29,067 nucleotides of DNA from Candidatus Asgardarchaeum abyssi (GTDB lineage Archaea; Asgardarchaeota; Asgardarchaeia; Asgardarchaeales; Asgardarchaeaceae): positions 1 through 29,067 of the forward strand of contig JBECUL010000024.1 in NCBI GenBank assembly GCA_040225955.1, read 5' to 3'. The translations under genes were made by a program, and so were the position numbers. This document shows, piece after piece, positions 1-29,067 of the stretch; the first letter of the stretch is position 1; every line of letters begins with the position of its first letter. A model generated the notes under the pieces. It was not told where the DNA came from, did not search any database, and saw only the letters and a program-made list of their open reading frames with translations.

Positions 1-645
1 TTTTTTATTGGGGAATTTTGAAAATTCATGGAGGATTGAGGCGGATCTTGGTGTCTAGGGAGCGTACTCATTTCGAAAATAGTGCGGAAGTACTGTTGAA
101 AGCAAATTACTTATAAATCAACACGCGCTTTCACGAAGCCAATAAAATTAATATATTTTTAGTTTAGTGAACTCCATTTTTAACTCAAAAACAAACTTAC
201 TACATCACAAAAGTTTGTATAGCTTGCAGAGAATAATAGCTCTAACATTATGTATTTGCTTAAAGATTATTACTACAAGAGATAAAAATTACATGAGGTG
301 ATAATATTGCATGTGGAGAATGAACTTAGGAAGATACCATCATACTCTGAAGAACTTGGATTAGACCTTCATAAGCCTGAAGACAGATTTCTATGGTTTC
401 TAGCCTCTCTACTTTTCGCAAAGAGAATTTCGGCAGAAATAGCGAAGAAAACTTTCATGTTATTCGTAAACCAAGAGTTAACCACGCCAGATAAAATATT
501 AGATGTGGGATGGGATAAATTGGTAGATATTTTGGATTCTGGAGGCTACGTAAGATATGATTTTTCGACAGCTACGAATATCTTAGAATGTATGAAATTG
601 TTAAAGAAGAAATATAGAGGTAATTTAGATAGATTGCACGAAATG

Positions 646-15389: not shown

Positions 15390-18098
15390 ATGAACGATGA
15401 AATATCATTATATGTTAATCCAATACTCTTTGAGATTAAAAAGACTATAATAAATGATGATTTTGTAGAAAGAATAGTAAAGTTCCTAAAAAGTAGAAAG
15501 TTTGATAATATTCTCACAAGTTATGATAAAGTAATCAGAAGTGAAGAAATGAACGAACTTTTAAAAGATATTTCACCAAAAAATACAGTATTACTTGTTT
15601 TTCAAAACATTATGGATTACGTTGATTTAACTAACCTTTTTGTTTATGTTTTTATTCATGAATTGGAAAGAAAAAATAAGCAGTTATTGGAGAAAAGTGA
15701 TTTTTTCAAAAGTTTTAAGATGAACAACATAAATGAATTTATAAATTTTATTAGACTTGTCGTTTTTCTAAAAGCAATTTTAAAACGATCAAAAAAACTT
15801 TACAACGGGCTAATTACAGTGCTGAAAGAAAAAGATTTAGAATACGTGGAAAAAATAGTTAACGCGATAGAGAAGATTAATGTTAGTTCTCAATTTAGTG
15901 AAGACATCGTTTGTCGAATAATAAATCTTTCATTTAATCTAGCAGAAAAAGGCTTTATTCCTTTTTTCAGTTTTATTATAGAAGGTTTTAGAAATAATAA
16001 CCAAGAAAGTTATCCAAAAAATTCGTTTTTTCATGCCTTTCGATGGCTTTTTAATGAATTAACCACATATGCAGACTTATTTGAAGATAAAGATACACTC
16101 ATTTTGATATCAGAAGCTTTTGAGAAAAAAGATCTGAACGTACTATATGAACTTAAGTTGGTCCCTAGGAATATAACATTTAGCACTATTGAAGAAATCA
16201 GCAATACACTAATCCCAGGCATATGGAACAACTATAAAGATATATTGGAAAATACGAGAATTTCAGTGATTTTGATTGATCTAAAAGGCATACAGAAATT
16301 TATAACACGATCAGAATATCGTTTTTACTTGGCAGGAGCTAGTTCATATATTGAAACTACTCTTAGAGAAATTAATGAAGAGCTGATTAATAAAGGAATC
16401 CCACCTGAATGCATAATTTTTAGTACTGGAGGAGGAATTTTATTAGTAGTCCCAGAAAATAAGGCGACCGATGCGTATTCAATCATTTCAAATAACGTGA
16501 AAAGGCGATTTGGTACGGCAGTAGGTATCAGAACCAACTACTCTAACTTTAAAAATAAATATCTTTTTCATCCGATTGAATTAATATATGGTCCAATTTA
16601 TTCGTGGCAATCACAAAATAACCTACCAATGAGGGGATTTGGTGGAATTTTTAATTATATTTTAAAAAATCTTGAAGATAAAACGCTAAATGAGCGTTTT
16701 GCAGTTCATAATTTAACATATAATGATATATGCGCTGTATGTTTTAATAAAAAAGGTGAAAATCGAAATAATCCAGAAGACGCTCAAATAATAGAAAAAG
16801 TAGCAGGACCCGAATTCAAGGGAAAGAAAATATGCGATATTTGTTTTAATGTAATTAAGCATGAGTATGATAAAAAATATACTCTTAGAGAAAAGGGTTA
16901 TAGCGGATTAATTTCCATAACTGTTAAGGGCAATAAAGTTATTGCATCGGTAAGTGACTACATAAAAGAAAAGACTAAAATTCCACTTTTTGAGGTTCTG
17001 CATAAGATTACAGAGATTATTAATTCTAATGAGAAACTAAATAAAAAAATATACATAGCTCTTAGTGATATCGAATCCAATAAAATTTCATTTAAATACG
17101 TAAGAACATGGGATGAGCTTGGTAAGCTTTCTTATATGCTAAGCAAAATAGAAGAGGTTACTCATCCAGAAATTGCATTGATAAAAGGTGATGGTGATAA
17201 TTTTGGCACCGTAAAAGCATTAATGTCATCAATAGCAACATATAAACAAATCTCAAGGCTATTTTCAGAGATTTCTATAGAGGGTGTTGCTTACGGTTTT
17301 GCAAACGTAATATTAATGAGTTTAAATGAATATGCAGAAAACTACTTTAAATACATTGACACCATATATTTGCCATTTGATGTGCTATATATTGGTGGCG
17401 ATGATCTAACCTTGTTACTTGATGCAGGATTCGTATTCAGTTTTATAAAATATCTTCATGAATTTTTAATTCAAAGAGTAGGGTTGCAAAAAACAGGTGA
17501 TTATCATAAAGATAGAGATAATATCTCAGCGTTAAGTCCTATAAATTTAGGTTATTCTCTTGGAATATCAATATTTCCGAATAATATGCCTCTATACATG
17601 GCCCTTTATACGACCAATGAACTAGAATCAATGGCTAAGAAAAAATCTAAAAAGAGAAACATAAAACATGGTGGAACTATTACAGTTGCATTTCAGAGAT
17701 TTATTGGTATTCCATCCAAGCATATCATTCATGATATCTATGGACCTAAAAATGGTAACATCAAGCTAACAGCATGGCCAAGAAGTTATGACGAGCTATT
17801 TGATAGACGAAAAGGTATCTTACCGAAAATAAAACAACTTTTAGCTCATGATATAAGTGCAAATAAAATTTTACGTTTCATAAAGGTAGATGATATAGAT
17901 GCTGACGAAATAAAGCTTAAAATAAATTACGCTGCTGCACGAATGAGCAAAAGCAGGCAAGATGAAGCAAGCTTATTAAGAGAATTAGCACGTTTTTCTT
18001 TTATAATATTAGATGATATTCTATCATTTCAACTTAGAGATATTGTAGATATTATGAGAACAGTTCATGAAAATGAAAGATTACTAGCTGTTAGTTAA
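15390..18098 (+). CDS. cas10: Type III CRISPR large subunit Cas10 (intact cyclase Palm, degenerate HD)
   Basis: ILIDLKGIQKFI...LAGASSYIE, FSTGGGILLVV, Zn finger CAVC...CDIC, LIKGDGDNFG, LYIGGDDLTLL. No HD dyad in the N-terminal region. Confidence 0.95.
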   Translation: MNDEISLYVNPILFEIKKTIINDDFVERIVKFLKSRKFDNILTSYDKVIRSEEMNELLKDISPKNTVLLVFQNIMDYVDLTNLFVYVFIHELERKNKQLLEKSDFFKSFKMNNINEFINFIRLVVFLKAILKRSKKLYNGLITVLKEKDLEYVEKIVNAIEKINVSSQFSEDIVCRIINLSFNLAEKGFIPFFSFIIEGFRNNNQESYPKNSFFHAFRWLFNELTTYADLFEDKDTLILISEAFEKKDLNVLYELKLVPRNITFSTIEEISNTLIPGIWNNYKDILENTRISVILIDLKGIQKFITRSEYRFYLAGASSYIETTLREINEELINKGIPPECIIFSTGGGILLVVPENKATDAYSIISNNVKRRFGTAVGIRTNYSNFKNKYLFHPIELIYGPIYSWQSQNNLPMRGFGGIFNYILKNLEDKTLNERFAVHNLTYNDICAVCFNKKGENRNNPEDAQIIEKVAGPEFKGKKICDICFNVIKHEYDKKYTLREKGYSGLISITVKGNKVIASVSDYIKEKTKIPLFEVLHKITEIINSNEKLNKKIYIALSDIESNKISFKYVRTWDELGKLSYMLSKIEEVTHPEIALIKGDGDNFGTVKALMSSIATYKQISRLFSEISIEGVAYGFANVILMSLNEYAENYFKYIDTIYLPFDVLYIGGDDLTLLLDAGFVFSFIKYLHEFLIQRVGLQKTGDYHKDRDNISALSPINLGYSLGISIFPNNMPLYMALYTTNELESMAKKKSKKRNIKHGGTITVAFQRFIGIPSKHIIHDIYGPKNGNIKLTAWPRSYDELFDRRKGILPKIKQLLAHDISANKILRFIKVDDIDADEIKLKINYAAARMSKSRQDEASLLRELARFSFIILDDILSFQLRDIVDIMRTVHENERLLAVS

Positions 18099-18109
18099 GA
18101 GGTGTTATA

Positions 18110-18769
18110 ATGAGTTCTACCATGATATATAATAAACCAATCGAAGTTATAATAGAAATTAAAGGTTTTTTCCGAATTGGTGGTGAAACTGATTTTAGAA
18201 GTGCCTTTTTACCACTTGCAAGAAATAAAAGTAGTAAAATACCTATATCATTAGTAAACATGACATCAAGCTTTAAAGGAATTCTAAGAAAATCTGCAAT
18301 GAGATTTATTAATAGCAAGATTCTAAGCCAAAATAATGAACTCAAAAACATGTTAACAAACTCTCTTTTTAAACTATTTGGAAAATCTGGAAAAATGCAA
18401 GGAACAATAATATTTGAATTTGTAGGATTTGAAGATACCGTACTAAGGATCGATATAAGACCAGGAATTAAAATAAATCCTGTATTTGGAAGCATAGAAG
18501 AGAAGCACATTTTCTTTTACGAATATGTATATAATAGTTATAATTGTCTAAAGAATATTAAGCTAAAATTTAGAATGACTCCTCTCTACCCTCTAAATGA
18601 ATATGATTGCATCCTATTATTTACAGCAATTAATGGTTTACGATATGATAACATAGGAGGGTTTAATTCTAGAGGCGGAGGGTTTATTGAAAATATTTTG
18701 GTTGATGAGAATTTTACTAATAGAGCCAAAAAGATCGTTAATAAACTTAAGGTGTTGAAAAATGTTTGA
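18110..18769 (+). CDS. cas7: Cas7-group RAMP (Csm3-like)
   Basis: FRIGG, SSFKGILRK, LFG, RPGIKIN...IFFYE, G-loop IGGFNSRGGG. Confidence 0.85.
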   Translation: MSSTMIYNKPIEVIIEIKGFFRIGGETDFRSAFLPLARNKSSKIPISLVNMTSSFKGILRKSAMRFINSKILSQNNELKNMLTNSLFKLFGKSGKMQGTIIFEFVGFEDTVLRIDIRPGIKINPVFGSIEEKHIFFYEYVYNSYNCLKNIKLKFRMTPLYPLNEYDCILLFTAINGLRYDNIGGFNSRGGGFIENILVDENFTNRAKKIVNKLKVLKNV

Positions 18770-20072
18770 TGAAGAAGATATCATTGCAGTTTTTAAATTA
18801 AAAACATTAACACCATTGGTTATTACAGCAAAAAGAGGAGCTGGAAATTTTATAAAAACATTAGATATTATACCCGCATCCTCACTAATTGGAGCTCTTT
18901 GTAGAGCAATAGTTTTAACTAATATGGATAATAAAAGAGGAAAATGTGCAGAATTAAAAGATACTGTAACGCTGCCAGATTGCGATAATTGTTCATTGAA
19001 TGATAAATGCTTGTATCCAAAACTCTGGAGAAACCAATTTCTTTCTAACAAAAACAATGAGAAAATAATAGTAAGCTGGGCATATCCTATTAATAAGAGT
19101 ATAGAATCGAATATTAATAATATATTGTATGCTCCTGTAATTCCTAGTCTAAAATCGTTGATTAAACCAAGGATTCGTATGAGTGATGCAAAGGAGATAT
19201 ACGATAGCTTGATATTTTATGGCCTTTTTGAAATAGGGAGAAAATACGGTATAACTAGATTTATTGACATTTTAGGACCTAAAGTTAAAAATAGAATTCC
19301 AACAAAACCTATGTCAGCTACTGTTTATTATGATGAAAAATCTAAAAGAATACAAGAAATTAACATAAATACTACGCAAATTACACATATTACAATTTCC
19401 GATATCTTAAAAACTGTTGAGACTGGAAATGATGGTGAGAAAGGAGAATTATATCATTATGAGGCAATTAGTGAAAATAATATATTCTATTTCTACATTA
19501 TTTCAAAAAAGAGATATATCGATCTGCTAATGAAGCACATGAAAGATCATCCAATACAAATAGGTGCGGCAAAATCACGAGGATACGGCTTTGTTGAAAT
19601 TGAAAAGGTAATAGAAACTACAGTTAATAAATATATTTCAGAAAGATTAAAGAAAATACAAGAATATAATTCTAAATTTGAATCATATATAACAAGTCAA
19701 AGAAACTTTTCTAATAAACTTTTTCTGACAATTACAGGATTGTCACCACTTAAGATAGATAATAAAACAGTACAAGAGGCTCTTTTATTTAGGATTAACC
19801 AAAAAGTAGAGATTTTGAAATTTTTCTTTACGCTGGATACTTTTTTAAGAATCGATATATCAAAGCCACAAATAACATTTAATTTAACACCAATAGTGAA
19901 TGCAGGATACTCAGTTTTTATTGAAATCACCACGAAAGAAGATGAAAAAGAGAAAGAGAATATTATAAGACAACTTTTAGAATGGGAGATAAAAATACCT
20001 TATGAGAGTTGGTTTGGCTGGTACTTTATAAATCATCCGATACATTTTAGTTATCTTGAGGAGGTGATATAA
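18762..20072 (+). CDS. cas5: Cas5-group RAMP (Csx10-like, extended), with a Cys-rich insertion
   Basis: LKTLTPLVI, DIIPASSLIGAL, C...CDNC...C cluster, THITI...LYHYEAI, IGAAKSRGYGFVEI, then a second degenerate RRM-like half. Position cas10-cas7-cas5 is typical of III-D. Confidence 0.75.
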   Translation: MFDEEDIIAVFKLKTLTPLVITAKRGAGNFIKTLDIIPASSLIGALCRAIVLTNMDNKRGKCAELKDTVTLPDCDNCSLNDKCLYPKLWRNQFLSNKNNEKIIVSWAYPINKSIESNINNILYAPVIPSLKSLIKPRIRMSDAKEIYDSLIFYGLFEIGRKYGITRFIDILGPKVKNRIPTKPMSATVYYDEKSKRIQEININTTQITHITISDILKTVETGNDGEKGELYHYEAISENNIFYFYIISKKRYIDLLMKHMKDHPIQIGAAKSRGYGFVEIEKVIETTVNKYISERLKKIQEYNSKFESYITSQRNFSNKLFLTITGLSPLKIDNKTVQEALLFRINQKVEILKFFFTLDTFLRIDISKPQITFNLTPIVNAGYSVFIEITTKEDEKEKENIIRQLLEWEIKIPYESWFGWYFINHPIHFSYLEEVI

Positions 20073-20434
20073 TGTCTCAACAAAATGTAATTAAGTCAAA
20101 ATCAGATTTAATTAATTTAGCTAGACGCATTTTAAGAAATGTTGAATGTGTTAAAAGAGAAGAATCGGATGCCGTAAGTTCAAGCTTTGTCAGAAAAGTT
20201 CTGGAAATTTCTCAAAAGGTAGATAGCATTGAGGAATTTAAACTTTATGTAGGATACTTCGTCTCAAAAAATGCTAAATCCCCCGACTCGGGGTTATACA
20301 CGTTCCAGCATAATTTAGAAAATGCTCTCAAGCAAATCAAATATGATTTGAATACATTAAGAACTCTTATAGAATATGTTGTGATGCTACATACGATAAA
20401 AGCAAAGGAGGAAGAATACAGTGGTTGGTGGTAA
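20072..20434 (+). CDS. cas11: Small subunit Cas11 (Csm2-like)
   Basis: 120-aa all-helical protein inside the operon; VSSSFVRKVLE...EFKLYVGY...LIEYVVMLH pattern. Confidence 0.7.
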   Translation: MSQQNVIKSKSDLINLARRILRNVECVKREESDAVSSSFVRKVLEISQKVDSIEEFKLYVGYFVSKNAKSPDSGLYTFQHNLENALKQIKYDLNTLRTLIEYVVMLHTIKAKEEEYSGWW

Positions 20435-21218
20435 TAATGCTTTGTATAAATGTTTAAAAGCTAGGTGGAGAGTGCGATGCAAGATTGAACCTCAAGAATC
20501 ATTATATGTAGGTGTTGGAAGATCTGATTTTTCAATAGCTGCAGTAGAGTTACCATTTGCAAAAATATTTGACCAAAACAGTAATTCATGGATACCTGTG
20601 ATTCCTGGGTCTGGATTAAAAGGGGCTTTTAGAGCTTATTTCTCTAGATTAATTAACTCTCTTAGCATTGATATATTAAATGAATTTGGTTTCAAGGGTA
20701 CATTAATGACTGATGAAACAAATTTTGAAAGAGATTTTGTGAAAACCAAAGGAGTGCAAGAAAAACTTAAAAAATTGAAAAGTGCACCAACAATTTTCAA
20801 ACTCTTCGGCATTTCTGGTTTTGCGTCTCTTATAAAGTTTACTGATGCTTTACCAGAAAGATCCCTAGAGAAACATGGGCTTATCAGAAGAACTCACGTC
20901 AGAATTGATATAAATACAGATAAAGCTGTTCAAAATGCACTTTTTGATTTGGAAGCAATCGTAAAAGGTTACACTTTCACATTCGACATAATCTATGATG
21001 AGCTTGATGATGAAATTTTAAAAGATGCAAATGAACTTTTTAATCTTATGATTAAGCTTCTGAAAAGAGGTTTAGAAATTCATATTGGTGGCATGAAATC
21101 CCGTGGATATGGCTTAGTAAAAATTACTGCAGTTTTAATTGAAAGATTTACACCCAAAGATCTATTTTTTGGTAATAAACCTCAAATCGTTTATCAAAAA
21201 GATGAAGGAGGAATTTAA
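20421..21218 (+). CDS. cas7: Cas7-group RAMP (Csm3/Csx7-like)
   Basis: LYVG, IPVIPGSGLKGAFR, LFG, IKFTDA, RTHVRID, LFDLEAI, IGGMKSRGYGLV. Confidence 0.92.
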   Translation: MVGGNNALYKCLKARWRVRCKIEPQESLYVGVGRSDFSIAAVELPFAKIFDQNSNSWIPVIPGSGLKGAFRAYFSRLINSLSIDILNEFGFKGTLMTDETNFERDFVKTKGVQEKLKKLKSAPTIFKLFGISGFASLIKFTDALPERSLEKHGLIRRTHVRIDINTDKAVQNALFDLEAIVKGYTFTFDIIYDELDDEILKDANELFNLMIKLLKRGLEIHIGGMKSRGYGLVKITAVLIERFTPKDLFFGNKPQIVYQKDEGGI

Positions 21219-21220
21219 TA

Positions 21221-22090
21221 ATGTCACGGACTATAGGGATATTTAAGAAATATCTTTTAACATATAAATTATTTGTTGATATTCAAACAATATCACCAGT
21301 TAGAATTGGATCTTCAAAAGCTGTAATTTCATTAATAGAACCAGATTCGCCAGTTGTAAAAATTCGATTAAAAAATGGGAAAGTAATACCGATTATTCCC
21401 GGTTCATCACTCAAAGGCTTTTTTAGAGCCACCTTCTCAAGAATAATTTCCAAAAGACAAGACCTTTCTAATGTAGAAAACGAAATTTTTGGTGATCCAA
21501 GAATACATGCTTCAAGAATATTTTTTCATGACGTTTTTCCAAAATCAGAACAAAGCTTTAGGCTGATTGTTAGAAAACATATAAGAATTGATAAAAGAAG
21601 CTCTGCTGTTGCACCACATGGATTGTTTGAAGTTGAAGCAATCGCAGAAAATTCACTATTTAGTGGAGTGCTTTTTACCGCAAGAAATTTGAGTTTGGAC
21701 TTTTTGGGCGTTTTGAAACCAATTATTACACTTACGAATATGGGGATCTTTAGAATCGGAGGATATAAGAGCCGAGGATACGGTGAGATTTCAATACAAC
21801 CAATAGCGTTAGAAGTAACAATCTTTGGTCAGAATACTAAGGATTTACTAAACGGCATTACATTAAGTAATAAAGAAGTTTTTAGTTTAAGTAATATAGA
21901 CATAACCATTAAACTTATTAAAGAAAATAATTCACTATTTCTTACAATACCACAAGTTTCTGAATTTAGACTACCTATTGATATATCATATGACATGCAA
22001 CCATTTGCAATAATCTTAAAACTCGGGAGGGATGAAACTCTACAATTAATTGATAAAATGAACGAAATTCTAAAGATGTCAGGAGGGTAA
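21221..22090 (+). CDS. cas7: Cas7-group RAMP (Csm3-like)
   Basis: SPVRIGS...PDSPVVK, IPIIPGSSLKGFFR, IFG, SRIFFHD, RKHIRID, LFEVEAI, IGGYKSRGYGEI. Confidence 0.92.
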   Translation: MSRTIGIFKKYLLTYKLFVDIQTISPVRIGSSKAVISLIEPDSPVVKIRLKNGKVIPIIPGSSLKGFFRATFSRIISKRQDLSNVENEIFGDPRIHASRIFFHDVFPKSEQSFRLIVRKHIRIDKRSSAVAPHGLFEVEAIAENSLFSGVLFTARNLSLDFLGVLKPIITLTNMGIFRIGGYKSRGYGEISIQPIALEVTIFGQNTKDLLNGITLSNKEVFSLSNIDITIKLIKENNSLFLTIPQVSEFRLPIDISYDMQPFAIILKLGRDETLQLIDKMNEILKMSGG

Positions 22091-22095
22091 TAAGG

Positions 22096-22950
22096 ATGTC
22101 TTCTGGTACATATTATGAATATATTCCAGTAACCAATGTTCATAGAGTAAGAATACCAGATAGTATATTCTCTAGTCGCTCTAAAATAGAAAACATATAC
22201 AAAATATCGATGAAATATAAAGCAGTATCTCGAGTACATATAGGATCAGGTAAAAAAGATTTTTTGGAAAAAGAGAATAAAGTATTGTTCAAACATATAC
22301 GTGACGCTAGGGGTTATTTGTTTTTACCTGCTTCTTCAATAAAAGGTGTTGTATCAACAAACTTTTTGGCTATATGTGGTTCTGCTGAGCTTACGAGTGA
22401 GGTTTTTGGAACAACCGCTGATAAAGCTACTATTTCAAAAGTTTATTTCTATAATATATATCCACAAGGTAGAAACTTACTCGAGATTGTTGAAATCGAA
22501 AAACTCTGGTCACCAAAACCTCCAAAGAATAATGTAGTTAAAATTTACATAAGTAAAGCTCCTGAAACTGATATTGCAGGGAAAATTGAAACCCTAAAAG
22601 TTGGAACTATTTTTCAGTTTAAGCTATTCGGAATAAATTTGAGTGAAATAGAATTAGGCACTCTTCTATTATCACTCGGATATAACCCAAGTTCGAAAAA
22701 TAGAAAATTTCTTAAAATCGGATATGCAAAACCAAAGGCATTTGGCCTACTACAACCATTGGATGAAACACTTGTTATTGAAAAGTTAGAAATTACTGAG
22801 AAATTTGAAGTACAACATAAGATTTTAGAAAGAAAGAAAATTTTAGAAATTATATCAAATACCAAAAAACATATCAATAATGAACTATCAAAACTTGGAT
22901 TTAAAGATACTGTGGATAATCGTTTTAATATAGTTTTTGGGTGGAAATAA
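22096..22950 (+). CDS. cas7: Cas7-group RAMP (Csm5-like terminal subunit)
   Basis: VHIGSG, LPASSIKGVV, VFG, SKVYF, LWSPK, ELGTLLLSLG, KIGYAKPKAFG. Confidence 0.85.
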   Translation: MSSGTYYEYIPVTNVHRVRIPDSIFSSRSKIENIYKISMKYKAVSRVHIGSGKKDFLEKENKVLFKHIRDARGYLFLPASSIKGVVSTNFLAICGSAELTSEVFGTTADKATISKVYFYNIYPQGRNLLEIVEIEKLWSPKPPKNNVVKIYISKAPETDIAGKIETLKVGTIFQFKLFGINLSEIELGTLLLSLGYNPSSKNRKFLKIGYAKPKAFGLLQPLDETLVIEKLEITEKFEVQHKILERKKILEIISNTKKHINNELSKLGFKDTVDNRFNIVFGWK

Positions 22951-23402: not shown

Positions 23403-25031
23403 TTACTCTTTATTTTTTTGTTTATTATATGATTTTATTATTAATTGTGCTAATGGATGATTATAATTAAGACAGACGAAAGTTGCTCTTCCTGGACGTT
23501 CGAATATTTTTTCCTTTTTAATTTTAACTATGCCAACCAATTTTAAAATTTTTAGTATTCCAGGTTTACCGTTAGAGCCATAAAGATCCTTTTTACTTAA
23601 TTTTTTATTATTATTGTTAATGGAACACTCTTCTAAAATTGTACTAATTCTTCTGCAACCTAACATTTCACCTCTCGCCTTCTCCTGTTTTAAATCCTCT
23701 TCAAGCTTGCTAATTAGGTATTCTACGAGTTTAGAAGCTTTATAACCGAATAGCTTAGAGATGAGCTCGATGGATATTTCCATATTAATATTTTTAATAA
23801 GTGATTCATAGAGCGGCTTGTACAATTCTACAAAAATTGGCGGGTGTAGGTTATTGGCATTTTTTACGGCAAGAATATGCTCAGGAAGACTTATGACAGA
23901 TGCTTGATTTATAAATGATTTTAGCGTTACCTCGTATGTCTCAAATAATTTATTTAGCAGAGCGATTTTCTCAAACACCTTTCGTAGCGGTGTGGGATCA
24001 AGCAGATGAAGAGAGGACATTCTGCCAGCAAGGAAGTATGGATTATAGGAGGAAGCTATATTTGTGACTAAATAGTAAAAGTTGGAGATTTTAGACGTTA
24101 TGATATTTTCTGTAAGGATATTTAGCTTTTCTAGTATCTCTTTAAGTACAAATGCAATAATAGCACCATATGTAATCTTCCTTCTAAAGTTCTTTCTAAC
24201 ACACTTAGACGCTTTTATCAATTCTGGGCTATAAACACACACCCCTCGCGAAGTCGGCAATATTTTTTCCTCAATATGGAAGTATAAGTGATTCTCGAAG
24301 ATTTTTTTGATGTCCTCCCTTGGAATTTTATCTACATTTTTCCTTTGTATAGCAACAGCAACAAGGTATTTTGTGTTCCCTCGCTTCAAAGGAGTGCCTC
24401 CTCTTAGAAAAAGAAAGAAGTATTGTTCACTTAAACGGACTTTCACATTATCCACAAATTCCCTTTTGAATAAACTAAATAGAATATCTGCTTTTATAGC
24501 AACAGCTAAACTTTTAAGACCATTAAATTCTTTTGACTTATAAAATACTTTGGCAATATTTTGCTCTTTCATTAGATCGATTATTTCGGTGTATTTAATT
24601 GGCTCATTTATGTCTAAATGGAATCGAATAACAAAGACAAACGGAGGATACCAGTCAACAATGAGTTTCCCACGAATTTCTTCAATCTCTTGCATATCTT
24701 CTCTCACAAAATGAACTCTAACTGGCCTTTGAGATATTATCCTAACAGGGACTGGTGGAATGATCTCAATATTGAACTGAGTTGATATTTCTCGCCATCT
24801 TTTTAAAATGAGTGCCCATGGACTATTAGGTGAAATATGAAGCTGGCCTACATTCTTAAAATAAGCATTGAAAGATCGCTCATCATTTCGTTCGCAGACT
24901 GTTTGCAAAACTTGATAAAAATACTTAATGTCCACAAATTTGTGGAAGGAAGAGTTAACATAGGATGTATTTATTATCTGAGGAACAGAAAAAGTTTGAA
25001 AAATGTCAAGTATGGCTCCCTCGAAAATCAA
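23403..25031 (-). CDS. Hypothetical protein, 542 aa, probable C-terminal winged helix
   Basis: Long ORF with GGTGA RBS before TTG. C-terminus RRISTILEEC...LYGSNGKPGILKILKLVGIVKIKKEKIFERPGRATFVCLN resembles a wHTH recognition helix + wing. N-terminal region not recognised. Confidence 0.6.
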   Translation of the reverse strand: MIFEGAILDIFQTFSVPQIINTSYVNSSFHKFVDIKYFYQVLQTVCERNDERSFNAYFKNVGQLHISPNSPWALILKRWREISTQFNIEIIPPVPVRIISQRPVRVHFVREDMQEIEEIRGKLIVDWYPPFVFVIRFHLDINEPIKYTEIIDLMKEQNIAKVFYKSKEFNGLKSLAVAIKADILFSLFKREFVDNVKVRLSEQYFFLFLRGGTPLKRGNTKYLVAVAIQRKNVDKIPREDIKKIFENHLYFHIEEKILPTSRGVCVYSPELIKASKCVRKNFRRKITYGAIIAFVLKEILEKLNILTENIITSKISNFYYLVTNIASSYNPYFLAGRMSSLHLLDPTPLRKVFEKIALLNKLFETYEVTLKSFINQASVISLPEHILAVKNANNLHPPIFVELYKPLYESLIKNINMEISIELISKLFGYKASKLVEYLISKLEEDLKQEKARGEMLGCRRISTILEECSINNNNKKLSKKDLYGSNGKPGILKILKLVGIVKIKKEKIFERPGRATFVCLNYNHPLAQLIIKSYNKQKNKE

Positions 25032-25053
25032 AATAAATCACCTGAAGATTTAG

Positions 25054-25114
25054 TGAGGGACTCTCCCCACGAGGGGGAGATTCGGGTACACCTAAACGTT
25101 AGTACCCGCCCTCA
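25054..25114. other. GC-rich three-way-junction structured element in the leader of the 542-aa gene
   Basis: Closing stem tgaggg (25054-59)/ccctca (25109-14); hairpin tctcccc (25062-68)/ggggaga (25074-80); hairpin cgggtac (25083-89)/gtacccg (25102-08). Confidence 0.65.
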
Positions 25115-25146
25115 TTTTTAAGAATAAAAAACAGTAAATTTAAATT

Positions 25147-26772
25147 TTACTTAAATATTTCATCAAGAATTCGCCAGGACTGTGTGTTTGGGTTCCATAG
25201 GTCTTTTGGAAAACGCCAGTAACTGCCTATGCTTGGGTCGACTAAAAAGATTTTTACATTACTACCCTTAAAAATACGCCTAGAGTATAACAAAAAGTCT
25301 GATGCAGTACCAGTAGGAAGCTTCAAAATCGATAAACACGCATTAAAACTTCCTCGAACATAGAATGTCATATTGAATGGTAAAAAGTCAAAGAGATACT
25401 TATAGAGCTCAGCGTCATCCTCTGATGCCTTAGTTAAGAAAAGTATTATATCGTTAAGTCCTATATTCTGAAGCATCACATGATGTTTAAGAAGACCATA
25501 TTTGAAGTAGTTTTTTAATTTTTTGACAATAACATTCGTGCCTTTCTTGAACCTTTTACGCAATGAAGCTACACGCAAATCATTAGTCGTAATGATATAA
25601 TCAATGATTTCCATATCAAGATTTGTTAAATTAAACGGTAGCTCTATTTTTCGAATTTTTATAAATGGAAATGTTATAATGCGAGATTTCTCTTGCTCTA
25701 TTATCCTTTTGGTCCATAAGTACCAAGTATGAAAATTTGTATTCCATCGTTTCTCGTCAATCAGAAAACTGCTAAAATTATAAAATCGAGCATACTTCTC
25801 AGCAATAAAATAATACAGTTCTTTTACATGATATTTTTTCCTTATTAAATTTAAGAACCCATCCAATTTTGAAACAAATGCATTCGAGTTTGGAGCAATC
25901 ATGAAAATCAGAAGTGGCGTATCGTCATCAAGTATATGATATATCTGATAAGTAAAGGGATTTTTTCTAAGCTTTTCAACCAACTCACTCTTGTGCTTCT
26001 CCTCTTGGAAACACGCGTAGATAAAATAATAGGTCAGTCCAAATGATGATATTCCTATGGATACTCTTCTAGCTAGTATGTGCCATCTCTTAAGCTTGTT
26101 CAAAATGTTTGATACAGCTGAAATACTAATATTTAGAGACAAAGCTATTTCCCTAAGATTAGCATTAGGTTTCTGAGAAAGCTCTTGAAGAAGCAAGATG
26201 TCACTCTTACTAAACTTTGGGGTGTACCTAGTCATGAACTCTTCAATAAGTTCTAAGTATTCCCGCTGACTCATCCTGATGCTGTAATCATCAAACTTTC
26301 TTAAAATACGCATAATCTCTCTTAAGAACTGTTTGCTAGCAAGTTCATCGAAAATAGGAAAACTATATGGCGCATTATAATAAATATTTGGAAGTATTTT
26401 AATAGGGGGAGATATCTTAATCCAAATATCCATCCATCGCTTCTTCTTTTCTTTAGAGATATTTAGATAAGCGTAATACATACATAAATCATATGCTTGA
26501 GGAATCGATGAAATAGCCTCCGGCAAGAAAATTGCAAAAGCTTCCCTTAGTAATATCCCATCAGCAAGTTCTTTATATTCTTTAGATAAAATAAGGCTTC
26601 GCCCACGTTCTACCACTCCAAACCTGTAGGGGTTCTCGGTCATCTCACTAATGTCTGCCATTATAACATTTTCAAATGGCTCTCTTACAGCGGGATAATC
26701 CAAGTAGGTCTCTATTTGCTCAATATACTTTTGATACAACCCAGTTAGATCCACCCCAGAATCTTTTTCCAT
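25147..26772 (-). CDS. Large transcriptional regulator with two Lrp/AsnC-like wHTH + ferredoxin-like modules and an extra N-terminal domain
   Basis: HTH1 SKSDILLLQELSQKPNANLREIALSLNISISAVSNILNKL followed by SSFGLTYYFIY; HTH2 LTNLDMEIIDYI...VIVKKLKNYFKYGLL followed by NIGLNDIILF. Confidence 0.75.
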   Translation of the reverse strand: MEKDSGVDLTGLYQKYIEQIETYLDYPAVREPFENVIMADISEMTENPYRFGVVERGRSLILSKEYKELADGILLREAFAIFLPEAISSIPQAYDLCMYYAYLNISKEKKKRWMDIWIKISPPIKILPNIYYNAPYSFPIFDELASKQFLREIMRILRKFDDYSIRMSQREYLELIEEFMTRYTPKFSKSDILLLQELSQKPNANLREIALSLNISISAVSNILNKLKRWHILARRVSIGISSFGLTYYFIYACFQEEKHKSELVEKLRKNPFTYQIYHILDDDTPLLIFMIAPNSNAFVSKLDGFLNLIRKKYHVKELYYFIAEKYARFYNFSSFLIDEKRWNTNFHTWYLWTKRIIEQEKSRIITFPFIKIRKIELPFNLTNLDMEIIDYIITTNDLRVASLRKRFKKGTNVIVKKLKNYFKYGLLKHHVMLQNIGLNDIILFLTKASEDDAELYKYLFDFLPFNMTFYVRGSFNACLSILKLPTGTASDFLLYSRRIFKGSNVKIFLVDPSIGSYWRFPKDLWNPNTQSWRILDEIFK

Positions 26773-27101
26773 CTAATATAACCACCCTCAGTAAAATACA
26801 ATTTTGATAAGAACTTAATATCTTATATACGAAAAGAAGTATATCAAAATTTTTCTCATTCTAATTAAAAAGTTCTCGGTTTTCTATAAATATTTCTTCA
26901 CTTGTACATTTTAAAGCATTACCTTATAAAACACTACGAAATTGCTTATTTCTATTTTTAAAATTGGTCCCTATTTGTTTTTTTCAAAAAACGCTCATCT
27001 TAATTTAGAACAGCCAAAAATAGCGTTTCTCTTGCTGCTTATCACAAGGTCCAAAAAGGCAATCCCATCGGAAACGAATAACTATCAACAAGGTGAGAAA
27101 A

Positions 27102-27182
27102 ATGGTTGGACCCGGAGATGGAGACCCAGTCCCACTATGGCCATCTCCTTGGCCTGAGCCGCCTCCACCCTCCTCAGGCTAA
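27102..27182 (+). CDS. Putative 26-aa Pro/Gly-rich peptide MVGPGDGDPVPLWPSPWPEPPPPSSG
   Basis: Strong AAGGTGAG RBS directly upstream of ATG 27102; GC-rich island matching the ORF limits in AT-rich surroundings; TAA 27180-27182; T-rich tract at ~27204-27222. Below the ORF-track size cutoff. Confidence 0.65.
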   Translation: MVGPGDGDPVPLWPSPWPEPPPPSSG

Positions 27183-27233
27183 GGAGATTACGCCAAGCAG
27201 ACATTTTCACTTTTCTTTTTTATTGACTAATAA

Positions 27234-28067
27234 TCATTTGCTTGATACTGTTTTCTGATTTTTCCGGTATGTATTAGTTGTAGTGACCCCTAGCCCCCTA
27301 GTACGCTTATTACCAACATTAGAGAATTCAGCGAACCTCGTTAACACTGCCAACCATCGGATATATCCATCACTTGATTTAGCAATAAAAGAAACACGAC
27401 CTTTAAACCCAACAATTTTTTCAGCTTTGCCAATATCAATTTCTCTTGTTACAACTTTTAATTCTCTAACAAAGACATTTTGAGAAACCCAATTCTTAAA
27501 TTCTGCAAGATCTACCTTTACATCCGAATAGGTATTCCAAATTCTTGCCAGATTAGAGAAAAGCAGCTCAGGAATTGGCAACATTATAGGATATTTCTTG
27601 TTTTTCTCTTTAAATTGGACGGGAGTATGAAAAATAAAACTAAATTTACTTGGAGGCTCATCATAACCTGCTTCCTCTTTTAATAACTGGTCAAAGTTTT
27701 TCTTCTTAAGATTTATCTTGGTAACCGCAAATGTAAGATTAGCTAAATTTATTTTCCCAACACTTTCTGATACCAACTCACTAAATATCTTCTCCTCTAA
27801 AAGGGGATCAAGAATAGAATATCCAAAGAAACATATATCCCCCTTTCTCACACGCCACATACCAGCTTTCACTAGCCGCTTTTTTCTCTCAGGAGCCAAA
27901 GGAAAAATAGCATAGGGTTTTATCATCTGTTCGTCATGAAGTTTTTTAGAAAGTTCAGAACTTACCCTCTTTAGTCTCCCTAAGAAGAATCCCTGAACTA
28001 TGTGCCCAGTAAATGCAGGAATCACACCATCCGACAACGCCATAACTTCAAAAATCGCTTTAATCAT
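27234..28067 (-). CDS. cas6: CRISPR pre-crRNA processing endoribonuclease Cas6, second paralog next to the array
   Basis: FTGHIVQGFFL, FIFHTP, DIGKAEKIVGFKG, SNVGNKRTRGLGV. ATG 28067 (after GAGG) aligns with the start of the other Cas6; ORF track extends to 28094. Confidence 0.93.
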   Translation of the reverse strand: MIKAIFEVMALSDGVIPAFTGHIVQGFFLGRLKRVSSELSKKLHDEQMIKPYAIFPLAPERKKRLVKAGMWRVRKGDICFFGYSILDPLLEEKIFSELVSESVGKINLANLTFAVTKINLKKKNFDQLLKEEAGYDEPPSKFSFIFHTPVQFKEKNKKYPIMLPIPELLFSNLARIWNTYSDVKVDLAEFKNWVSQNVFVRELKVVTREIDIGKAEKIVGFKGRVSFIAKSSDGYIRWLAVLTRFAEFSNVGNKRTRGLGVTTTNTYRKNQKTVSSK

Positions 28068-28509
28068 ACTTAATATCCTCTTGCTGATGATCACTAATAT
28101 AACGACTAGAAAACTAACTATTTAAGCTTCACCACTCAAAATCTACATGCATCTAACACTTTGAAGTCAACCCTATAATAAAATTCACTCAATTCACAAG
28201 TAATATTCTTCAAAGAATAATTACGAAAAGTGGACATCTTTATTATCTATTTTATTATTGTTAATATTATTACATTATTTAGTAATATAATTAAGTTAGA
28301 TGAAGATAGAAATTTGATAGGAAGCTAATAATAATTCTCTCTAAATCAAATCACAGCCACTTTTTTGGCCATTCTCCTTATAATTTATCAATTCCATGTA
28401 AATCCCTTCTATAAGTATTTTATACAAGTCACATGGTGGAGCAGATAGACACAGCATGACCAATTAACACCTTCAGTAATTAAGCCGTGATACATATCAA
28501 CTATTGCTT

Positions 28510-29067
28510 CTTTCAATCCCCATATAGGGGAATTCTTTCTGCAAGTTTTGTATTCCTTTACTTCTATTTCTATATCATTGAAACTTTCAATCCCCATATA
28601 GGGGAATTCTTTCTGCAAGACTGGTACTGCGGGTTGAACCCGACATATTTAGGTTGACCTTTCAATCCCCATATAGGGGAATTCTTTCTGCAAGTTATAC
28701 GGTTGAGGAAAAAATACTATTGGCAATATACGGCTTTCAATCCCCATATAGGGGAATTCTTTCTGCAAGTATCAACAACAGTTTAGCTTTAATTCCAGCG
28801 ATAATTTCTTTCAATCCCCATATAGGGGAATTCTTTCTGCAAGTTTTGTATTCCTTTACTTCTATTTCTATATCATTGAAACTTTCAATCCCCATATAGG
28901 GGAATTCTTTCTGCAAGACTGGTACTGCGGGTTGAACCCGACATATTTAGGTTGACCTTTCAATCCCCATATAGGGGAATTCTTTCTGCAAGTTATACGG
29001 TTGAGGAAAAAATACTATTGGCAATATACGGCTTTCAATCCCCATATAGGGGAATTCTTTCTGCAAG
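28510..29067 (-). CRISPR. CRISPR array: 8 identical 36-bp repeats, 7 spacers of 38-39 bp, truncated by the window end
   Basis: Repeat (+) ctttcaatccccatataggggaattctttctgcaag at 28510, 28584, 28659, 28734, 28808, 28882, 28957 and 29032. The reverse complement ends ATTGAAAG (canonical 8-nt handle) with a tcccc/gggga hairpin, so transcription is on the minus strand and the leader lies beyond the window. Confidence 0.98.

Follow-up and report, generated by a model that had tools for sequence, protein, structure and literature searches.

The stretch analysed here, called the window below, comprises 29,067 nucleotides of contig JBECUL010000024.1 (contig C24) from the assembly of Candidatus Asgardarchaeum abyssi (genome G000). 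The cas6 gene of a CRISPR-Cas locus and a gene for a 541-residue protein (protein A) both lie on its minus strand, so that the 26-codon open reading frame (ORF) found between them runs on the opposite strand. This mini-ORF encodes a Pro- and Trp-rich micro-protein, and an earlier note on this DNA had proposed it as the partner of the neighboring regulator. The features of the region are as follows.

27102..27182, plus strand: micro-protein gene, 26 codons and TAA, encoding an acidic Pro/Trp-rich peptide
27092..27096, plus strand: Shine-Dalgarno-like (SD) sequence GGTGA, 5 nt before the micro-protein ATG, read from the sequence
27143..27188, plus strand: 16-bp hairpin covering the last micro-protein codons and the stop codon
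27211..27221, plus strand: T-rich tract TTTTCTTTTTT, likely the archaeal terminator of a short transcript
25147..26772, minus strand: protein A, 541 aa, a degenerate M1-zincin-like N-terminal domain followed by two Lrp/AsnC modules, each a winged helix-turn-helix (wHTH) plus RAM

The micro-protein gene

The ORF extends from an ATG at 27102 to a TAA at 27180-27182; an upstream in-frame GTG would give 29 residues instead of 26. Its start lies head to head with that of the protein A gene (26772, minus strand), at the 329-bp spacing given in the earlier note. The ribosome-binding site, GC island and T-tract described there were likewise all recovered, as GGTGA, a 60-nt GC peak of 0.67 and a T6 run. 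No other GC island in the window is as strong as this one, which runs from 27092 to 27213 (window mean 0.329, standard deviation 0.072); codons for Pro, Trp, Gly and Asp account for its G+C richness. The T6 run is at 27216-27221, 34 nt past the stop codon. Genes of this size escape gene callers, and archaeal micro-proteins with a known partner are very few. This one had indeed been overlooked, as the earlier note expected: the gene table of a near-identical NCBI contig shows nothing between cas6 and the 541-aa gene.

A word-based protein search with protein A retrieved only two close homologues, with 49% and 44% identity (loci L017 and L018). Scanning of the flanks of these genes, a check that the note had suggested, revealed a mini-ORF with codon-level conservation beside both. 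In L017 it spans 360-425 (+), on the same strand as A, with its stop codon 167 nt upstream of the A start; in L018 it spans 3184-3110 (-) and is divergent from A, with 224 nt between the starts. All three peptides begin with M-V and contain the core P-x-P-[LD]-W-P-x-x-W-P-E-P-P-P-P. Outside this core, in a variable, indel-bearing part of the peptide, falls the GPGDGD stretch, which had been taken for an interaction motif.

Pairwise differences among the three orthologous ORFs at the first, second and third codon positions were 3/3/15, 7/8/13 and 6/5/15. The proportion of synonymous differences (pS) was near saturation (0.72-0.78), that of nonsynonymous differences (pN) was 0.16-0.26, and pN/pS was 0.22-0.33. 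The SD and ORF together form the sole significant DNA similarity among the three peptide-A intergenic regions, and only the sense frame is open in all three loci, the five other frames being stopped or unrelated between loci. The excess at third positions and the sole open frame therefore indicate that selection acts at the level of the amino-acid sequence rather than on an RNA structure or a site in the DNA. Judged by these sequence patterns, the 26-codon ORF is a conserved protein-coding gene under coding selection.

Two further copies in G000, on contigs C19 and C173, encode an identical 16-residue C-terminus despite 9 synonymous differences. The seven long-type peptides that could be aligned are acidic, rich in Pro and Trp and without a hydrophobic N-terminal segment, and across the mini-ORF peptides conservation extends beyond the prolines to the tryptophans and acidic residues. 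GGTG(A) precedes the start at equal distance in all seven long-type copies. A run of at least five T occurs 29-65 nt past the stop codon in each of the seven, L017, L018 and L161 included; with a background chance of 0.27 per site, the probability of seven out of seven is about 1e-4. With its own SD, ATG and T-tract terminator, the ORF would be expressed as a micro-gene in its own right, from a transcript of roughly 130-200 nt.

The island might instead be read as a structured non-coding RNA or as a terminator hairpin of cas6, with the ORF fortuitous. In favor of this are its high G+C content in a genome of 33% GC, its position immediately past cas6 on the other strand, and a strong hairpin formed between 27143-27158 and 27173-27188 (fold z -2.6 on the plus strand vs -0.8 on the minus strand). 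However, the hairpin has only a shorter equivalent in L017 and none in L018, and is thus not a conserved RNA element. The island gave no Rfam match at the gathering score or at E<=10, and no tRNA. Substitutions concentrate at third codon positions, a codon-position test that an RNA or terminator fails, and the orientation of the ORF relative to its neighbors varies between loci while SD, ATG, frame and stop are always kept. We regard this explanation as extremely unlikely.

Protein A and the mini-ORFs beside its relatives

The AlphaFold model of protein A has a predicted local distance difference test (pLDDT) score of 93.6 and a predicted template modeling (pTM) score of 0.88. Two segments, residues ~187-331 and ~384-511, both consist of a winged helix followed by a RAM-type fold, in agreement with the secondary structure of the model. 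The best full-length Foldseek match was the fused tandem protein NirDL (4czc, 4.6e-8), and many Lrp/AsnC chains, among them 2dbb, 2pmh, 2e1c and 2cg4, matched at 1e-4 to 1e-3. Among curated models only HTH_24 passed, at 25.4 bits (cut-off 21.9); no AsnC-type RAM model matched, and the NCBIfam Sta1 and Lrs14 matches were far below their cut-offs. The description of the regulator as two Lrp/AsnC-type modules after an N-terminal domain, here of ~186 aa, was thus borne out by the model and by Foldseek. The model contains no TPR or other helical-repeat domain.

The N-terminal domain (186 residues), modeled alone, had a pLDDT of 94.5. Foldseek gave no significant match for it, and the weak rows were largely zincins, including PprI (8slm) and BlaR1 (8exs). 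In VIA-align, almost all of the top 50 rows were zincin-fold proteins, with alignments spanning 156-173 of the 186 residues. The Z values for tricorn factor F3 (1z1w), cold aminopeptidase, puromycin-sensitive aminopeptidase, LTA4H and thermolysin were 9.1, 8.4, 8.3, 8.1 and 7.6, another match was listed at 8.2, and the TAF2 chains 6hqa_A and 5fur_I reached 7.2 and 7.0; a best Z of 7-8 also arises without true kinship, and the zincin values are only slightly higher. For this reason the M1-zincin-like fold suggested by the model is probable, not certain.

The family alignment lends this assignment further weight. On the helix where zincins would carry HExxH, protein A reads R76-E77-A-F-A80, and both histidines are missing in every family member examined. 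The spacing of H-E-x-x-H-x18-E is kept: position 99, 19 residues after position 80, is Glu in most members and Tyr in the window protein. With both histidines missing across the family, A cannot bind zinc in the canonical way. A zincin fold without its zinc histidines would thus be a peptide-binding scaffold kept without catalysis, and from its sequence the domain is a pseudo-enzyme, not a functional M1 metallopeptidase. D95, W113 and W117 are invariant in the family, and P84 is near-invariant.

A HMMER scan with the three close homologues collected 330 representatives of the A family at E<=1e-3, mostly of 500-560 aa and matched end to end. The family is unnamed. It was present in 113 of 400 genomes sampled from the phylum, often in 2-3 copies. 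A Pro/Trp mini-ORF was found near A relatives of 23-28% identity in C27 (a further contig of G000), L161, L242/L243 and L246. In C27 it lies upstream of the A relative on the same strand, and in the other loci it is divergent and separated by about 210-400 nt from where the neighboring cassette gene begins. This neighbor is A in L242/L243 and L246. In L161, with the gene order peptide, B, A, it is the gene of protein B, a conserved 542-aa partner of A, and the mini-ORF lies 400 nt upstream of it. The distance from mini-ORF to A start is 167-330 nt in the window, L017, L018, C27, L242/L243 and L246. Across the loci that bear a mini-ORF, A identity is only 23-49%.

Remoter relatives were scanned with a strict rule, that is, an ATG ORF of 8-30 aa with at least four Pro and ending in [ED]P[WF] or WPW. 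Among 32 loci of distant A relatives, 10 independent loci matched, compared with 0.14 in block shuffles, and on the whole G000 genome the rule gave a single match, a true family member. These mini-ORFs lie upstream of A and are nearly all divergent from it. A looser composition filter was positive at 12 of 16 loci of family f5, with ORFs of 12-24 residues of the type PPxNPxEPW-stop or ...EWPW-stop. Related genomes are included in these counts, which are not independent and overstate the number of separate events, but the contrast to background is still large. On this comparative sequence evidence, mini-ORF and A family have remained genetically coupled across deep divergence.

Within G000, a composition filter (ORF of at most 45 aa in which some 12-residue window holds at least five Pro and at least one Trp) gave five matches in the 2.6-Mb assembly. 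Four were alignable family members with a GGTGA-type SD: the window gene on C24, C27:23637 (-), C19:11360 (+, GTG start) and C173:1343 (+). A peptide profile recovered exactly these four on the genome, of which C24 and C27 stand beside A-family genes and C19 and C173 beside Csa3-like genes. The peptide-regulator system proposed in the earlier note was partly upheld: a real peptide gene is genetically coupled to the regulator family, and the peptide is a candidate for its ligand or target. Two of the four genome copies adjoin Csa3-like regulators instead.

Other searches for the peptide found less. Against 400 genomes of the phylum, the profile gave nothing beyond the four G000 copies, the short type of 12-16 residues being invisible to it, and the mini-ORF peptides had no Pfam match. 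A search with back-translated WPxxWPEPPPP returned 54, 54 and 1 matches in metagenome, genome and viral contigs, respectively, which we rejected as chance because they lay in DNA of 47-78% GC and in long or unrelated frames. Intergenic DNA similarity within the genome and 40 relatives was AT-rich noise only.

XPPX and poly-proline motifs (PPPP, PPD, PPE, PPW) are present in every member of the peptide family; the PPPP codons of the window gene are at 27159-27170. Motifs of this kind need EF-P in bacteria and eIF5A in eukaryotes. The mini-ORF could accordingly act in cis as a translational sensor, in which ribosomes stall on poly-proline unless aIF5A is active and thereby control transcript folding, termination or read-through; the pausing itself is a prediction from sequence. 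The likeness to arrest motifs dependent on EF-P, eIF5A or aIF5A and to leader peptides such as TnaC and SecM lies in short ORFs dense in PP(P/D/E/W/N), some of them upstream of the gene that would be regulated and with RNA structure over the stop codon. The hairpin covers the last codons and stop in the window, as a shorter one does in L017, and in two loci, L017 and C27, the mini-ORF precedes A in the same orientation, the two being separated by structure and a T-tract. However, such placement was seen only in these two loci, and most mini-ORFs have no downstream gene in cis. They point away from A in the window, L018, L242, L246 and f5, and in the window and L018 no sense-oriented gene follows, the next gene converging on the mini-ORF. 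L018 lacks the hairpin, a T-tract alone suffices for archaeal termination, and Trp and acidic residues are conserved alongside Pro. We consider a sensor of this kind unlikely; if it existed, it would be the first archaeal example of such logic.

A gene of ~30 codons ending in ...PPFWLSPRPFxEPDWPPDD... is present on about 20 contigs of temperate bacteriophages with high GC (0.69) (L220 2667-2756 (-), L171, L175, L193, L208, L216 and others). It lies between the lysis cassette and the integrase, has a GGAGG SD and G+C contents by codon position in the order GC3 > GC1 > GC2, and showed no match in annotated phages. The eight residues EPDWPPDD common to the phage gene and the archaeal peptides most likely arose by convergence.

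The CRISPR-Cas setting

The window also holds cas10 and RAMP genes at 15390-22950, and two further features of the CRISPR-Cas locus lie beyond the mini-ORF.

27234..28094, minus strand: cas6 (Pfam CRISPR_Cas6, 2.1e-15), its 3' end facing the 3' end of the mini-ORF
28510..29067, strand not assigned: CRISPR array, eight identical 35-nt repeat cores, reaching the window end

The match of cas6 to TIGR01877 (2.6e-15, 57.4 bits) was just below the 58.65-bit cut-off. In reverse complement, the repeat ends in ATTGAAAG. Within the array, a 262-nt block of four repeats with spacers (28508-28769) is exactly repeated 298 nt further on, at 28806-29067. This could reflect either a recent internal spacer duplication or an artefact of assembly where the contig ends.

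At least three of the four genome copies (C24, C27 and C19) are in CRISPR-Cas loci. On C24 the mini-ORF stands by cas6, the array and type III genes; on C27 it is divergent from a cas8b operon (cas8b-cas7-cas5-cas3), which flanks the cassette. On C19 it is located between a Csa3-like gene and a CRISPR array 1.3 kb further on, and on C173 it adjoins a Csa3-like gene on a 2-kb contig. Cas genes also flank the cassette in L018 (type I-D), L161 (cas6-cas8b-cas7-cas5) and L242 (cas4-cas2-cas1), and they flank A at L159 and L160. The window layout of cas6, opposite-strand peptide and A recurs in L221, L224 and L231; three f5 genera show this layout as csc2-csc1-cas3-cas6, an opposite-strand mini-ORF and then A. 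At the f5 loci of the PPxNPxEPW type, a limited tblastn and repeat scan over up to about 10 kb detected no cas gene or array. The two neighbors that recur most constantly beside the mini-ORF are therefore a transcription regulator (in most cases A) and a CRISPR-Cas locus, the latter for the long Trp-rich type.

On C19 (L162, 769-7432), a row of genes for VWA, protein kinase, AAA-like, small ORF and VWA products lies upstream of the Csa3-like gene and the peptide. It may represent a separate defence or signalling module beside the CRISPR array.

This setting raises the possibility, which we rate as rather unlikely though not negligible, that the peptide is an output: a CRISPR-locus micro-protein controlled by the divergent regulator, whether A or Csa3-like, and acting on Cas proteins, the adaptation machinery or a host factor. 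A regulator divergent from its target is the classic Lrp-type layout. The placement of at least three of the four G000 copies, and the cas genes adjoining L018, L161, L242, L221, L224 and L231, are consistent with such a role, which best explains the Csa3-linked copies on C19 and C173. However, the short f5 mini-ORFs adjoin A where no cas gene or array was detectable, the constant neighbor there being A, and an output role leaves the dead peptidase fold of A without a function.

The cassette and a candidate peptide-regulator pair

Two features on the B side of the A gene complete the cassette.

23403..25031, minus strand: protein B, 542 aa, TTG start, the conserved partner of A, of no known family
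25048..25119, minus strand: GC-rich multi-stem element between the A stop codon and the SD and TTG start of B

The TTG start of B is kept in the window, L017 and L018, and lies past a GGTGA by 6 nt in the window and 5 nt in the other two. The order is A then B in these three loci, and B then A in L159 and L161. Protein B had no Pfam, NCBIfam or PDB relative. We also considered B as a paralog of A, which was ruled out by the lack of profile similarity between them. The stem-loop element is conserved at the A-B junctions of L017 (2255-2335) and L018 (5088-5172), with an invariant stem 1 (GGGTAC/GTACCC) and one compensatory change in stem 2, and could serve B as an RNA element for processing or regulation.

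A small conserved gene next to two large proteins of unknown activity, one of them without a known domain, might also suggest the precursor of a ribosomally synthesized and post-translationally modified peptide (RiPP), with A, by way of its winged-helix or peptidase-like parts, or B as the recognition or processing protein. The earlier note had mentioned a precursor for modification, a suggestion that found no support: no modifying enzyme is nearby, and the Pfam and NCBIfam searches of the window's large ORFs revealed no radical-SAM enzyme, YcaO, lanthionine synthetase, methyltransferase or transporter. The peptidase-like domain of A lacks zinc ligands, and the peptides show no division into leader and core, with members as short as 12 residues. 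A RiPP precursor is very improbable.

The reading that we favor, tentatively and at a little short of an even chance, is that the micro-protein is the ligand or cognate partner of A, the pseudo-peptidase regulator. It is favored because Lrp modules are ligand-switched and a dead peptidase fold is a natural peptide receptor, and because the two genes have kept together even as A diverged to some 20% identity. The micro-protein would then be the small component of a three-gene cassette with A and B, often within CRISPR-Cas loci of what are probably Asgard archaea. The peptide, probably a polyproline-II helix, may dock in the former substrate groove of the dead peptidase domain. D95, W113, W117 and P84 all sit in this proposed docking domain, and the two tryptophans, W113 and W117, are spaced by one helical turn and could offer the polyproline helix an aromatic cradle. 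Docking would change DNA binding by the two Lrp modules, and the altered binding of A would alter expression of the cassette and perhaps of neighboring cas genes. We infer peptide binding, the binding site, the regulatory output and the link to immunity from the gene arrangement and the model of A.

Several observations weigh against this ligand reading. On C19 and C173 the mini-ORFs are divergent from Csa3-like CARF-wHTH genes, with no A or B gene within reach. No mini-ORF was detected within 1.5 kb of A relatives in f11 (0/10) or f14 (0/3), nor at L159, L160 or L241. In the three peptide-A intergenic regions, neither an operator-like 5-3-5 palindrome of the feast/famine regulatory protein (FFRP) type nor a shared word was found. 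The Z values noted above temper the fold assignment on which the proposed receptor depends, and all sequences come from metagenome-assembled genomes or metagenomes. As to f11, this clade may have lost or replaced its peptide partner.

The f11 genomes (G010:C23, G136:C62, G121:C78 and others) carry A-like genes in tandem arrays, with 2-3 paralogs of ~580-620 aa.

Neither the peptide family nor a zincin-Lrp fusion was found described in the literature searched. Protein A joins two known folds in an arrangement for which no description was found, and the parts of the cassette belong to no described family. The closest formal likeness is perhaps to the RRNPP systems of Firmicutes and phages (Rgg/SHP, PlcR/PapR, AimR/AimP), in which a tiny peptide gene adjoins that of a DNA-binding protein with a separate domain for the peptide, a candidate one in the case of A, and in which peptide and regulator genes travel together in variable relative orientation. 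However, RRNPP receptors consist of TPR and HTH domains, whereas A has a zincin-like domain and two Lrp/AsnC modules; the hosts here are archaea, and a third conserved gene, B, is present. The peptides here also have no signal sequence or hydrophobic segment, which makes export and re-import unlikely, and the short type has only 12-16 residues.

Lrp/AsnC modules are ligand-switched DNA binders. Like members of this family, including the fused NirDL/AhbAB type (4czc, 4czd), A has the wHTH plus RAM fold, here twice in tandem. Known members bind amino acids or small molecules and have about 150 aa, or about 300 aa when fused, and none is known to carry an N-terminal peptidase-like domain or to be paired with a peptide gene of its own. 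A zincin-fold domain functionally tied to an HTH regulator is known from ImmA/IrrE-PprI with DdrO and from BlaR1 with BlaI. Those are active proteases that cleave a separate repressor, whereas the domain of A is fused to its DNA-binding modules, appears closer to M1 aminopeptidases and has lost both zinc-binding histidines. TAF2 of TFIID likewise places a catalytically dead M1-type domain in a transcription factor; this is a resemblance of fold only, at middling Z, and the partners and architecture of TAF2 are entirely different.

The peptide family combines clear coding selection with a fixed genomic partner of unusual design and a recurrent CRISPR-Cas position. If the peptide is the ligand of the regulator, it would represent a new mode of control for archaeal transcription and a possible handle on the regulation of immunity. 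A bolder form of this proposal, which we think quite unlikely, unites it with the translational one: a peptide-sensing factor with a dead M1 aminopeptidase domain would read an aIF5A-dependent poly-proline micro-protein, and in this way translational state, for example under virus attack, would be relayed to CRISPR-Cas expression. If true, this pair of peptide and transcription factor would be the first signalling system of its kind to be described in archaea.

Of the wider genome, we also noted introns in 16 of the 43 tRNAs, which marks it as archaeal, and, consistent with an Asgard assignment, a gene for a full-length actin (448 bits).

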